Part shown: positions 39,901-42,900 of the stretch, in pieces
Numbering within the stretch: the first letter of the stretch is position 1
Layout: the number at the start of each line of letters is the position of its first letter
Assembly: GCF_988242995.1 (NCBI RefSeq)
Contig: NZ_OZ547044.1
Source of the DNA: a plasmid
Length of the DNA: 64,000 nucleotides
Strand: one strand, 5' to 3'
Made by a program: the position numbers

Positions 39901-42900
39901 TTTTTCCCGCTTCAGAACACCTTTTTCCCACTACGACACACCTGAAATCGCTACGAAGCCCGTAAACAAAGGTTTTGCCGCTAAAGGGATCAGTTTGGAT
40001 CTATTTGGATAACTAAGGGTAAGTTATTGGATCTACTCAAAGGATATGTGGATAACTCATTATGGAATCTATAGAACTTAAGTGCGTAAGGTGCTTTAAA
40101 AGGCTTCAGCTCCCCTGGTGCTTCCTCGCTCACTCGCGGGCTTCGCCCTGTCGTTCGGCTGCGGCGAGCACTGCTGGCTCTCTCTGAAAGGCAAAATTTA
40201 ACCGATCCTCGCAACGGGGATATCTCTCCAGCGAGTGGTGTACGCAGGGGAGAGCATATCGCGTTTCATTTGCCAGGATGGCGCAATTCCTCTACCGGCA
40301 AACCATACTTTACCCAGCCCTGAGTTGTTGATCCCGTCCAGAACCCTCATCAGCTCAGCACTGTGAGGGCGTGGCGGGCGTTCGTCAAACAGCTGCAGCT
40401 GCGAAACGCCGGAGCCGGTGAAGTCATTCAGCATAACTCCGGCTTTGGCATACCGGTGCCCATCCCTCCAGATACGCTCCAGAGCCATTGTGGCGGCTGC
40501 AATGATGTCCCTGGTGTCCTGAGTGGGTGTAAGCAGTTTTTCCGTAGCCACGTTGCCGTAGTAAGGCTCTTTAATGGCGAACGGAGACGTTTTGATGAAA
40601 ACGGAAATATGCCGGCAATACTGGTGCTCTTTACGCAGTTTTTCAGAGGCCCGCTCTGCGTGCTGACAGATAGCCTGACGGAGTGACTCGTACTCCGTGA
40701 TCTTCACGCCAAAACTGCGGCTGCAGACAATTTGCTGTTTCGTCGGAGGGGCTTCCTCAAGCGAAAGGCAGCTTTCCCCGTTCAGTTCCCGTACCGTTCG
40801 CTCAAGGACCACAGAAAAATTTTTGCGGATGAAGGCCGGGTTCGTCAGAGCCAGATCGAGCGCGGTTTTTATGCCCAGCACATTTAGCTTGCGTGCAATA
40901 CGGTTACCCACCCCCCAGATTTCTTCAACCGGCTGCAGTGAAAGCAGTTTCCGCGTCCTTTGCGGATTTCCCCTGGTCAGCGCGAGTACGCCACGAAACT
41001 GTTTCCACTCTTTTGAGGCCCACTGGGCTGATTTTGCGAGGGTTTTCGTTGGTCCGGCGCCCACGCCAATGGTCAGGCGGGTACAGTCATACACGTGCTG
41101 ACGCAGCTGCCGGCCGAAGTCCTCAAGCCCCATACAGTGCTCCACGCCGGTCAGGTCGAGGAACATCTCATCAATGGAATACTGTTCCACCCTGGGGGCC
41201 AGTTCCTCCAGGCAGTTCATCACGCGCGCCGACATCGAGGCGTAAAGTTCATAATTACTTGAAAACGCATATATTTTTTCCGGGTACCTTTCGTTTTTTA
41301 TCTGAAACCACGGAGTTCCCATTTTGATCCAGGGCTTCGCCTCGGCACTGCGAGCGATTACGTTCCCGTCGTTGTTGCTCAGGACGACTATCGGCTTTCC
41401 TTTCAAATCCGGGCGGAAAACACGTTCACAGCTGGCATAGAAGCTGTTCACATCGGCCAGGGCAAACATCAGTACATCTCCCTCGGGCGGTGGATGATAT
41501 GCGTGACAACGCCAAAGATATCCAGCTCGTCGGGATCAGGATAAATCGGCGACCAGGAGGCATTCATGGGCTGCAGCGTCAGTCGCGGCGTCAGCAGAAG
41601 CCGTTTCACCGTAAACTCCCCCTGTACGCTGGCGACAACGATATCGCCGTGCCGCGGCTTTTCAGCACTGTCCACAACCAGCAGATCGCCATTGTACAGA
41701 CTGCCGTCGGCCATGCTGTCTCCGCTGGCACGCAGGTAGTACGTCGCGCTCGGATGCCGTATGCAGTAATCATGGAGATCCAGATCGGACTCGACATAGT
41801 CAGCAGCAGGGCTGGGAAAACCGCAGCTGGCCAGATCGGCAAACAATGGATGGGCCTGTGGCGGGAGTTCTTTCCCGGTGCTGAAAAGTTGTAGTTTCAT
41901 CTTTCCTCCTGACACTCTAATTTTTACTGGTTATGCATACAGTATATTTAACGGCGTGACGATAATCCAGATCGCATGCCTTAAGAACATTTTGAGTAAA
42001 TAAAGGTGTTCAAAATGCTTAAATTAATCATTTTGATATTTTTATATTGCTCATATTGAGAAATATTGTTTTGATTTTTTCATTTTGCTCTTATAATTGG
42101 TATCAAATTGAGTGTAACTAACGGAGCATATTGATGAATATTTACTGCGATGATGGTTCAACTAATGTTAAGCTGGCATGGTTTGAAGGCGATGAGCTTC
42201 AGACCCGGGTTTCTGCGAACTCCTTCCGGCATGGCTGGAAAGTGGCGGAATTCAGTGCGGCAACGTTCAACTATCAGGTGGGTACGCTGAAATACACCTG
42301 GGACAGCGTCAGCCGGGATGCCATCCCGACAACAAACGTGGAATATCAGTACGGTGATCTCAACCTGCTGGCCGTGCATCATGCGCTGCTGAACAGCGGA
42401 CTGGAGCCGCAGCCGGTGAGCCTGACCGTGACGCTGCCCCTGAGTGAGTATTACGACGGGGACTGCCAGCGGAACGAGGAGAACATACGACGCAAACGGG
42501 AAAACCTGATGCGTGAGCTGGTTCTGAATAAGGGCAGGGCATTTACCGTAACGGACGTGAAGGTGATGCCGGAATCACTACCGGCGGCGTTCTCCCGTCT
42601 CGCGGAGCTGAAGCCCGGCCCCGCTGAGACCACCCTGATTATCGATCTCGGTGGCACCACGCTCGATGCCGGTGTGATTGTCGGCCAGTTTGATGATATC
42701 AGTGCGGTGCACGGTAATCCGTCTGTCGGCGTGTCACAGGTCACCCGCGCAGCTGCAGGCGCGCTGCGTGCGGCAGACAGCGAAACCAGCGCCCTCATCG
42801 CTGACACTGTCATCCGCAACCGCAATGATCGTCAGTATCTGCAGCGTGTGATCAACGATGCCGGTAAAATTGACGAGGTTCGGAACAAAATAACAGAGGC

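Follow-up and report, generated by a model that had tools for sequence, protein, structure and literature searches.

The window analyzed here, a 64-kb stretch of a KPC plasmid, contains what is predicted to be a LexA-repressed and apparently intact DNA polymerase V (pol V)-type operon, a conclusion that is fully supported at the level of sequence. We consider it highly probable that positions 40198-41944 represent a plasmid umuDC operon that would be under direct LexA repression, and that the other SOS-related genes in the window are independent passengers. The operon itself is not new. The umuDC region is found in ~4,900 PLSDB plasmids, mostly Klebsiella plasmids of the IncFII(K)/FIB/IncR types, where it has been annotated for years as pol V and forms an ordinary part of the backbone. 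The features discussed below are collected in Table 1.

Table 1. Coordinates and supporting evidence for features of the 64-kb window.
Feature	Position	Strand	Evidence or remarks
qnrB LexA box, shortened, TACTGTATAAAAAACAGGTA	3265-3284	+	CTG-N9-CAG at 3267-3281; 1-bp deletion in A run
qnrB1 quinolone-resistance gene	3290-3934	+	NCBIfam QnrB, 496 bits; 100% identical records annotated qnrB1
Truncated serine-recombinase ORF	27188-27583		Upstream of the terminal repeat; weak match, XisF model, 52 bits (cut-off 375)
Tn21/Tn1721-type 38-bp terminal inverted repeat, GGGGTTTGAAGCCCAACCGTACGAAAACGTACGCTAAG	27586-27623	-	Direct read; adjoins the SRAP truncation point
5'-truncated SRAP (YedK-like) ORF	27630-28280	+	216 aa; lacks the Cys2 nucleophile
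umuC homologue (Y-family DNA polymerase, pol V catalytic subunit)	40198-41469	-	423 aa; NCBIfam profile
umuD homologue (self-cleaving pol V accessory subunit, S24)	41469-41900	-	143 aa; ATG at 41900
Shine-Dalgarno sequence GGAGG	41905-41909	-	Direct read; 4 nt 5' of the umuD ATG; kept in diverged homologues
Predicted LexA operator (SOS box)	41925-41944	.	TACTGGTTATGCATACAGTA on the + strand, TACTGTATGCATAACCAGTA on the umuD sense strand; matrix score
Candidate umuDC promoter	41941-41969	-	-35 TGGATT (41969-41964), 17-nt spacer, -10 TATACT (41946-41941)
Unoccupied group II intron homing site (predicted)	41943/41944	+	Inside the umuD LexA box; antisense to umuD when filled in relatives
psiB (conjugation SOS inhibitor)	56457-56888	+	NCBIfam PsiB equivalog, 224 bits (cut-off 100), full length
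psiA	56885-57613	+	NCBIfam PsiA, 336 bits (cut-off 243)

The plasmid UmuC scored 799 bits against the NCBIfam UmuC subfamily model (cut-off 431), with residues 1-421 aligning to positions 1-422 of the 422-position model, and shares 64% identity with UmuC of E. coli K-12 across 420 aa. Alignment with E. coli UmuC and with the structures of Dpo4, Dbh, and DinB indicated that Asp6, the steric-gate Tyr11, and Asp100-Glu101 of the SIDE motif are kept (Asp6, Tyr11, Asp101, and Glu102 in the E. coli protein), and a QLQLF clamp-type motif pairs with QLNLF of E. coli. The UmuD homologue, with a score of 145 bits against the UmuD subfamily model (cut-off 110) and 60% identity to E. coli UmuD, carries a cleavage site, Cys26-Gly27 in DLASCGFPSPAADY, that aligns with Cys24-Gly25 in the E. 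coli sequence DLVQCGFPSPAADY, and its Ser-Lys dyad, Ser62 (ASGDSM) and Lys99 (FTVKRL), corresponds to Ser60 and Lys97. Inactivating changes at the umuD cleavage site or the umuC catalytic residues, a possibility raised in an earlier note on this DNA, were sought on these alignments and none were found, all of the named sites being present. The umuD start at 41900 is also the start in the RefSeq annotation of an identical plasmid, and the end of umuD and the beginning of umuC share 1 nt, an arrangement also found in E. coli. The operon is flanked by a repB-family replication gene (38911-39804) on one side and parM on the other. In diverged copies with 87-88% identity, the reading frames of both genes are unbroken.

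The earlier note had also placed a LexA box at 41925-41944 before umuD, and both the position and the sequence of this box were borne out. LexA sites were scored with a position-weight matrix trained on published E. coli SOS boxes, the training boxes themselves scoring between 13.4 and 28.3 bits (median 20.8). The umuD box, which precedes the umuD start at a distance of 24 nt, scored 23.4 bits, above the best of 30 shuffles (17.5 bits), while the runner-up in the window scored 12.4 bits. Compared with the 20-bp palindrome TACTG-N10-CAGTA with its AT-rich centre, both arms of the box are perfect and 16 of the 20 consensus positions are matched. When LexA sites were sought with the same matrix at the SRAP gene, psiB, ssb, and the other genes of the window, none exceeded the shuffle range. 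The umuD box is the sole convincing LexA site in the window, and is a predicted operator.

It could be argued that the CTG-N10-CAG before umuD is fortuitous and has no function in regulation, given that the bare pattern is common, with 31 matches in the window compared to 16.9 +/- 4.8 expected. Because this count is about twice that expected by chance, the bare pattern was dropped as evidence for LexA sites and replaced by the weight matrix, by which the full 20-mer stands clear of every shuffle. The position of the box relative to the umuD start also argues against a chance match, as does its use as a target by an intron lineage that inserts almost only in LexA boxes (see below). Moreover, the box is retained across diverged operons: it is kept in the 87-88% identical operons of Klebsiella, E. 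cloacae, and E. asburiae plasmids, where the flanks diverge, and a diverged box is still there in a K. oxytoca operon of which only a 128-nt umuD segment aligns, at 77%. We regard a chance match as extremely improbable. Based on the unbroken frames and the conserved operator in the 87-88% identical copies, we argue that the operon is likely to be under purifying selection.

A scan of 39800-42200 for promoters and terminators called neither a terminator nor, ahead of umuD, a sigma-70 site. The candidate promoter listed in Table 1 was missed by this consensus scan because its -35 hexamer matches at only 3 of 6 positions, and since the scan called nothing upstream of umuD, the promoter, TGGATT-17-TATACT overlapping the operator, is one that we infer. 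Its -10 hexamer overlaps the LexA box, and the candidate is kept in four intron-free homologues. It is analogous to the E. coli umuDC promoter, TTGATC-17-TACTGT, in which the -10 coincides with the start of the box.

By analogy with the E. coli paradigm, host LexA in an undamaged cell would occupy the single high-scoring operator that the sequence places 24 nt upstream of umuD, presumably overlapping the promoter -10, and would hold transcription low. DNA damage, such as that caused by quinolones, would give rise to RecA filaments and LexA self-cleavage, allowing umuDC to be transcribed. UmuD would then cleave itself on RecA filaments at Cys26-Gly27, using the Ser62/Lys99 dyad, and UmuD'2 with UmuC (Asp6, Asp100-Glu101, and Tyr11) and RecA-ATP would constitute an active low-fidelity translesion polymerase on damaged DNA.

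Some observations count against this model. About two-thirds of the related plasmids have an intron that interrupts the candidate -10 and takes away the -35, and yet the umuDC genes are intact, implying that the operon either can do without strong expression from this site or has its promoter at another position. Such wide tolerance of a promoter/operator interrupted by a 1.9-kb intron would also be expected if umuDC were intact in sequence but cryptic or weakly mutagenic, hitch-hiking beside the replication and partition genes, as with samAB of the Salmonella virulence plasmid, a plasmid pol V homologue that is reportedly poorly mutagenic in its native context. The published record is in keeping with this idea, in that our search of the literature on Klebsiella plasmid umuDC returned annotation and transcriptome mentions only, with no study of LexA binding, induction, mutagenesis, or phenotype. 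Transcripts of umuC and umuD have been detected for pKpQIL plasmids (PMC5915730), and the values in the uninduced transcriptome table of pBIC1a are low, at 17 for umuD and 11 for umuC compared to 224 for repA2 (PMC6286996). However, low uninduced expression is itself predicted by LexA repression, and the catalytic, cleavage, and clamp-motif residues are all conserved, as are the frames and the operator across the diverged copies. A cryptic operon is, in our judgment, quite unlikely. We find it somewhat unlikely that the main selected role of umuDC is damage tolerance of the plasmid and its host, by way of translesion synthesis and the UmuD2C checkpoint under antibiotic or conjugation stress, with mutagenesis as a by-product. 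The placement of the operon within a maintenance region, between the repB-family replication gene and parM, is consistent with such a role, and E. coli umuDC is described as having both checkpoint and translesion roles (PMC4045847), but sequence cannot separate this reading from the mutagenesis reading, and the two are not exclusive.

Unexpectedly, the umuD operator also proved to be an intron target, the intron of the related plasmids being located exactly within the LexA box, at the junction 41943/41944. In p426-KPC (L017) it is a clean 1909-bp insertion, with window positions 41400-41943 corresponding to L017 1240-1783 and 41944-42600 corresponding to L017 3693-4349, and it matches the Rfam family group-II-D1D4-6 with 187 bits. 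Among PLSDB records of the junction, 1866 are occupied and 884 are empty. The window is continuous across 41943/41944 and has no intron, the only Rfam matches within it being sok and AS-pc01. The insertion point falls between positions 19 and 20 of the 20-bp LexA box (TACTG-N10-CAGT/A). The target of the intron lineage can be written as T(-19)ACTG ... A(-5)CAGT(-1)/A(+1)T(+2), and window positions 41925-41945 read TACTGGTTATGCATACAGT/AT. Genomes and metagenomes yielded 86 distinct insertion sites for the lineage, of which 74 are LexA boxes belonging to SOS genes; the targets of the lineage include umuD, mucA-like genes, sbmC, tisB, dinB and dinB-like genes, and colicin genes. The lineage occurs in both orientations relative to the SOS genes, and its hosts include Klebsiella, Pluralibacter, and Burkholderia as well as gut-metagenome contigs. 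The protein encoded by the intron carries a reverse-transcriptase domain; Pfam detected no endonuclease domain in it.

These results indicate that the lineage very probably retrohomes specifically into LexA operators. A search of the literature for a link between group II introns and LexA operators returned no relevant paper by title or abstract, and the proposal that this targeting is both real and previously undescribed is put forward tentatively, at slightly less than even odds. A TATAT-containing stretch at nt ~156-165 of the Klebsiella copy was considered as a candidate EBS2 but left unassigned, since the Burkholderia copy has no conserved counterpart. On Klebsiella plasmids, where the insertion is antisense, it splits the candidate umuDC promoter, whereas an intron in the sense orientation would be transcribed from the SOS promoter and spliced out, so that its expression would be SOS-induced. 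As a separate observation, the antisense 5' end of the intron contains TTGATC 18 nt from CACACT, and, purely as an idea, this might replace the lost umuDC -35.

Among bacterial group II introns, site-specific ones whose DNA targets are structured or regulatory include those of class C, found behind terminators and in attC sites, and RmInt1, found in ISRm2011-2. They resemble the LexA-box lineage in a restricted choice of non-coding targets, which keeps harm to the host low, and in a reverse-transcriptase protein of this general type, but differ in that the target of the LexA-box lineage is the LexA operator itself, at many SOS genes. If true, this would be a retroelement addressed by an SOS operator, tying both the mobility of the intron and its expression to the response to DNA damage, and a natural case in which retrohoming is directed at the binding site of a transcription factor, with the further consequence that SOS promoters on clinical plasmids would be rewired. 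This by-product of the analysis could outweigh the umuDC finding in importance.

The earlier note had presented the operon as one of several combined SOS functions on the plasmid, together with an SOS-regulated qnrB, a YedK-like gene, and psiB/psiA. The gene qnrB1 is indeed present, but its LexA element has N9 rather than N10 spacing and scored 12.4 bits compared to 23.2 for the canonical qnrB element, so that it does not match the SOS-regulated qnrB that had been described. The canonical qnrB operator, CTGTATAAAAAAACAG, is a CTG-N10-CAG of 16 nt just upstream of the start codon (PMC6856666), while the operator core in the window, CTGTATAAAAAACAG (3267-3281), is 15 nt long, with six A's instead of seven. 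Alignment confirmed N10 spacing in qnrB2, qnrB4, qnrB6, qnrB9, and qnrB19, and in another qnrB1 record. The remnant operator lies ~10 nt before the start codon, which is the expected place, and the pspF-side upstream region is present. Relative to the SOS-regulated qnrB described by Wang 2009 and Da Re 2009 (cited in PMC12284122 and PMC5890660), one half-site in the window is shifted by 1 bp. The A6 form accounts for 356 PLSDB records of the qnrB1 context and the A7 form for 109; since most qnrB1 plasmids have the wrong operator spacing, qnrB1 may be regulated unlike other qnrB alleles. Two qnrB1 promoter variants have been studied (PMC12284122), in a text that is silent on whether they correspond to the A6 and A7 forms.

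For the YedK-like gene, the presence of an SRAP homologue was upheld, but its 5' end has been cut by a Tn21-type end, with loss of Cys2. The ORF scored 437 bits against the YedK subfamily model, aligning from position 10 of 222, and 423 bits against E. coli YedK structures over residues 6-222. Since homology begins at YedK residue 6-7, the catalytic Cys2 is absent; the Met start of the ORF is equivalent to YedK Gln9, no MCGRF is present upstream, and the upstream in-frame sequence is unrelated. Compared with the abasic-site crosslinking proteins of the YedK/SRAP (HMCES) family, the ORF shares the Glu105 and His160 regions, but the first five or six residues, including Cys2, have been swapped for transposon-end sequence. 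The adjoining 38-bp repeat we take to be of the Tn21/Tn1721 type, as judged by the ends of Tn21-family elements, and IS26 is also annotated upstream of it in an identical plasmid. Judged by its sequence, the SRAP gene is a dead, transposon-truncated remnant, with no repair function to count.

PsiB and PsiA are dampers of the SOS response, and the report of psiB and psiA on this plasmid proved accurate, both genes being intact by full-length profile matches. They are adjacent, and the annotation of an identical plasmid places them in the leading region, which also contains ssb and a ParB-like gene. In their full-length equivalog matches and leading-region location they are like PsiB and PsiA of F-like plasmids, and nothing notable differs.

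The suggestion that umuDC, qnrB, psiBA, and SRAP make up a co-selected and co-regulated plasmid SOS module draws on the presence of all four within one 64-kb window. The evidence otherwise runs against it: a convincing LexA site is found at umuDC only, the qnrB1 box has N9 spacing, and the SRAP gene has neither Cys2 nor its native 5' end. In addition, the four items lie in separate modules bounded by mobile elements, with qnrB1 set among Tn3-family transposon and IS fragments, and umuDC occurs in thousands of plasmids compared to only a few hundred for the qnrB1 segment, with IncR backbones that carry umuDC also in existence. We consider such a module very unlikely, and conclude that umuDC, qnrB1, psiBA, and SRAP are separate mosaic modules rather than one system. 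The corrections regarding the spacing of the qnrB1 operator and the SRAP remnant matter to anyone building on the first reading of this DNA.

With respect to the LexA-controlled operon itself, an error-prone polymerase on epidemic KPC plasmids could enlarge the supply of resistance mutations during treatment with quinolones or other SOS-inducing agents, although the stakes are modest. Something similar to this effect of a plasmid pol V on mutation supply has been shown for the Rum polymerase on R391, a mobile pol V orthologue that speeds the evolution of resistance (PMC11602152).

The window operon resembles mucAB (pKM101), impCAB (TP110 and IncF plasmids), samAB, and rumAB (R391), all of which are LexA-controlled umuDC-like operons on plasmids or integrative conjugative elements. 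For these orthologues, an increase in induced mutagenesis and a faster evolution of resistance are known or suspected. The impCAB operon includes a dinI-like gene, impC, which the window operon lacks, and in an E. coli IncF plasmid (L014) a dinI-like gene is followed by umuD with its own LexA box. For rumAB, R391 encodes the extra repressors SetR and CroS, whereas no such element-encoded repressors were seen for the window operon. The chromosomal umuDC operon of E. coli has the same gene order and, like the plasmid operon, is closely preceded by one LexA box, which in E. coli overlaps the -10; it shares the Cys-Gly cleavage site, the Ser/Lys dyad, the catalytic carboxylates, the steric-gate Tyr, and the clamp-type motif. 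It differs in its near-perfect box (28.3 bits compared to 23.4 for the weaker plasmid box), in its promoter hexamers, and in the N-terminal arm of UmuD, and it is chromosomal rather than plasmid-borne between a repB-family replication gene and parM. With ~60-64% identity, the window operon is nearer to chromosomal umuDC than would presumably be expected for mucAB.

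Alignment of the plasmid umuDC genes with those of E. coli K-12 gave identities of 60% for UmuD and 64% for UmuC. The umuD ATG is preceded by a Shine-Dalgarno sequence (GGAGG), and the umuD stop and umuC start overlap by 1 base, as they do in the E. coli operon. When aligned with E. coli UmuD and UmuD' structures, UmuD displayed the cleavage site Cys26-Gly27 and the Ser62/Lys99 dyad, while alignment of UmuC with its E. coli counterpart and with Dpo4, Dbh and DinB structures revealed Asp6, the steric-gate Tyr11, Asp100-Glu101 (SIDE motif) and QLQLF, a motif of the clamp type. The inactivating changes in the umuD cleavage site or umuC catalytic residues that the earlier note had named as grounds for refutation were thus not found.

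Features discussed in the text, in window coordinates except where a locus is named
Feature	Position	Strand	Remarks
umuC	40198-41469	-	423 aa; NCBIfam UmuC subfamily, 799 bits (cut-off 431), end-to-end match
umuD	41469-41900	-	143 aa; NCBIfam UmuD model, 145 bits (cut-off 110)
LexA box TACTGGTTATGCATACAGTA	41925-41944		24 nt 5' of umuD start codon; weight matrix and conservation
Intron in p426-KPC	L017 (p426-KPC locus) 1784-3692		Clean 1,909-bp insertion between window 41943 and 41944
qnrB1 upstream element TACTGTATAAAAAACAGGTA	3265-3284		CTG-N9-CAG, six A's not seven
qnrB1	3290-3934		Gene present
Tn3-family transposase ORFs	884-2719; 4984-8481		
SRAP (YedK-like) ORF	27630-28280		YedK-like, 437 bits; aligned only from model position 10
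HolE/Hot-like gene	48760-49014	+	94.3 bits, slightly below curated cut-off of 97
AS-pc01 antisense RNA	50276-50372	-	Rfam 98 bits, gathering score reached
psiB	56457-56888		224 bits, full-length match
psiA	56885-57613		336 bits, full-length match
sok antitoxin RNA	58425-58598	+	Rfam 67 bits, gathering score reached

The bare CTG-N10-CAG pattern by which the LexA box upstream of umuD had been recognized is poor evidence for a LexA site, with 31 occurrences in the window versus 16.9 +/- 4.8 expected. Because the pattern is weak, all 20-mers were instead scored with an approximate weight matrix, symmetrised and derived from 22 literature-known SOS boxes of E. coli. The umuD box scored 23.4 bits, exceeding the median of the training boxes, compared to 12.4 bits for the runner-up in the 64 kb and a top score of 17.5 over 30 shuffled windows; the umuD box is the only convincing LexA site in the window, and its reported position was exact. 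The 20-mer is also kept, as TACTGTATGCATAACCAGTA or TACTGTATGTATAAACAGTA on the umuD sense strand, in umuDC operons of 87-88% identity on Klebsiella, Enterobacter cloacae and E. asburiae plasmids, while the spacer between the box and the ribosome-binding site varies among the same operons, a pattern by which the box is recognizable as a phylogenetic footprint. No sigma-70 promoter was called upstream of umuD by a consensus scan. By eye, we spotted a conserved TGGATT-17-TATACT overlapping the box, which we infer to be a candidate umuDC promoter; it resembles that of E. coli umuDC, TTGATC-17-TACTGT, in which the -10 coincides with the start of the box.

A search for diverged homologues returned many records whose alignment with the window began only at position 41943. 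Among them, in the IncR plasmid pSg1-NDM, p426-KPC, pC696_2 and a K. oxytoca plasmid, the latter with a umuD alignment limited to a 128-nt segment of 77% identity, a group II intron with ltrA lies on the opposite strand directly 5' of umuD. The p426-KPC intron begins with GTGCG, ends with GCGAC, matches Rfam group-II-D1D4-6 at 187 bits, and separates position 19 of the LexA box from position 20. The occupied site preserves CTG-N10-CAG (matrix score 21.6), while the candidate -10 is split and all upstream sequence is displaced. The 41943/41944 junction of the window is the empty site; junction-specific 90-mers matched 884 PLSDB records for the empty and 1,866 for the occupied site. We also noticed that, read on the umuD sense strand, the intron's 5' end (L011, an intron-bearing homologue locus, ~560-610) contains TTGATC, identical to the -35 hexamer of E. 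coli umuDC, 18 nt upstream of the junction CACACT. Speculatively, this TTGATC might replace the displaced -35 in occupied plasmids.

Further copies were sought with an exact 25-nt pattern from the intron 5' end, which samples close relatives of the intron only. This recovered 14 copies in species-representative genomes, with hosts including Pluralibacter gergoviae, Klebsiella michiganensis, Burkholderia cenocepacia, B. gladioli and Paraburkholderia, and 97 loci in metagenomes. In 110 copies the 5' flank was 45 nt or longer, which gave 86 distinct flanks; in 74 of these, CTG-N10-CAG lay exactly in phase with the insertion point (the chance for the distal CTG is ~1/64), although independent insertions number fewer than 86 since several flanks are orthologous operators of related bacteria. 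Restoring the target gave TACTG-N10-CAGT/A (slash, insertion point) followed by T in every one of 16 distinct complete copies, and beyond the 20-mer no conservation was found in these copies except this T at +2. The boxes hit are those of genuine SOS genes, with many umuD operators as well as those of mucA-like, sbmC/GyrI, tisB, dinB-like polymerase and cloacin/colicin E3-type bacteriocin genes. A rough motif count put no fewer than 33 sites in the sense orientation, with a -35-like hexamer ahead of them, and no fewer than 19 in the antisense orientation. Nucleotides 186-191 in domain I of the intron read TACTGT and are conserved even in a Burkholderia copy of 74% identity, making them a plausible candidate EBS1 for the ACAGT half-site; in Pfam, the intron-encoded protein matched a reverse-transcriptase domain only. 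These data, which come mostly from outside the window, strongly suggest that this intron lineage homes to SOS boxes and that the umuD operator is one of its homing sites, empty in this plasmid. Judged by title and abstract, none of the papers found that mention both group II introns and LexA describes such targeting; as coverage of the literature was incomplete, an earlier description may exist.

The LexA box attributed to qnrB by the earlier note is not borne out as stated. Owing to its N9 spacing, the element upstream of qnrB1 is missed by a CTG-N10-CAG scan, and it scores 12.4 bits compared to 23.2 for the form with seven A's. Seven A's are found in qnrB2, B4, B6, B9, B19 and one further qnrB1 record, as well as in the published qnrB operator, CTGTATAAAAAAACAG (PMC6856666). 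Nor is the six-A form an error confined to this window: it occurs in 356 PLSDB records (90-nt segment around the element, >=99% match); the seven-A form within the qnrB1 context occurs in 109. It may alter SOS control of qnrB1, or it may be the product of slippage in the A run. Two unnamed qnrB1 promoter variants, whose A-run lengths are not given, are both reported to be quinolone-inducible (PMC12284122). Flanking qnrB1, two 20-mers are each repeated identically 7,599 bp apart (203/7802; 727/8326), and Tn3-family transposase ORFs lie at 884-2719 and 4984-8481; a transposase segment (~200-750 and ~7800-8350) may thus have been directly duplicated on either side of the gene.

As had been claimed, psiB and psiA are present, both full-length, in the leading region together with ssb and a ParB-like gene. 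The same region contains a HolE/Hot-like homologue of the DNA polymerase III theta subunit, a further replication-fidelity-related gene absent from the earlier list. Matches to AS-pc01 and sok were also observed in the window, with a hok-family toxin gene just 3' of sok according to the annotation of the identical plasmid pGSU10-3-2. The SRAP homologue is present, but its 5' end is gone: alignment with E. coli YedK structures begins only at residue 6-7, and the in-frame sequence 5' of the ORF is unrelated, with no YedK homology. There, on the other strand, lies a 38-bp terminal repeat, which we take to be of the Tn21/Tn1721 type, preceded by a truncated recombinase gene and IS26. The N-terminal Cys2 of SRAP proteins makes the crosslink to abasic sites; with truncation at codon 6-7 by the repeat, Cys2 is absent and the ORF is a remnant. 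On these plasmids the ORF is labelled 'SOS response-associated peptidase'; it is a truncated YedK homologue (27586-28280 including the repeat), and a label that implies a functional SRAP is probably mistaken.

The umuDC, qnrB1, psiBA and SRAP genes occupy separate modules bounded by mobile elements, with Tn4401 carrying blaKPC among them. With a convincing LexA site at umuD alone, neither their grouping as an SOS-connected set nor a reading of the four as a coordinated SOS toolkit is supported. The earlier observation is partly confirmed, holding for the umuDC box, psiB and psiA, but not for the qnrB box and SRAP as described; the earlier interpretation is partly supported.

A 2.4-kb query over the umuDC region matched 4,937 PLSDB plasmid records, 1,361 of them at >=99% identity and 3,567 from Klebsiella. 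The identical K. pneumoniae plasmid pGSU10-3-2 is IncFII, conjugative and MOBF. In the matching records the module is annotated as 'translesion error-prone DNA polymerase V autoproteolytic subunit' and 'Y-family DNA polymerase'. Both genes are among those expressed in the pKpQIL and pBIC1a transcriptomes (PMC5915730, PMC6286996), with low values in the pBIC1a table (PMC6286996), while our literature search found no study of LexA control or mutagenesis for this Klebsiella plasmid operon. Given thousands of annotated records, and a concept of mobile pol V orthologues established elsewhere, e.g., for the Rum polymerase of R391 (PMC11602152), the module is already known, and its sequence identifies it as a widespread, predicted LexA-repressed pol V operon. 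On an E. coli IncF plasmid (L014, 250-650), a dinI-like gene is followed by umuD with its own LexA box, TACTGTATATGCATACAGCA. This operon, arranged in the manner of impCAB, represents a separate, independent line of pol V operons on plasmids.
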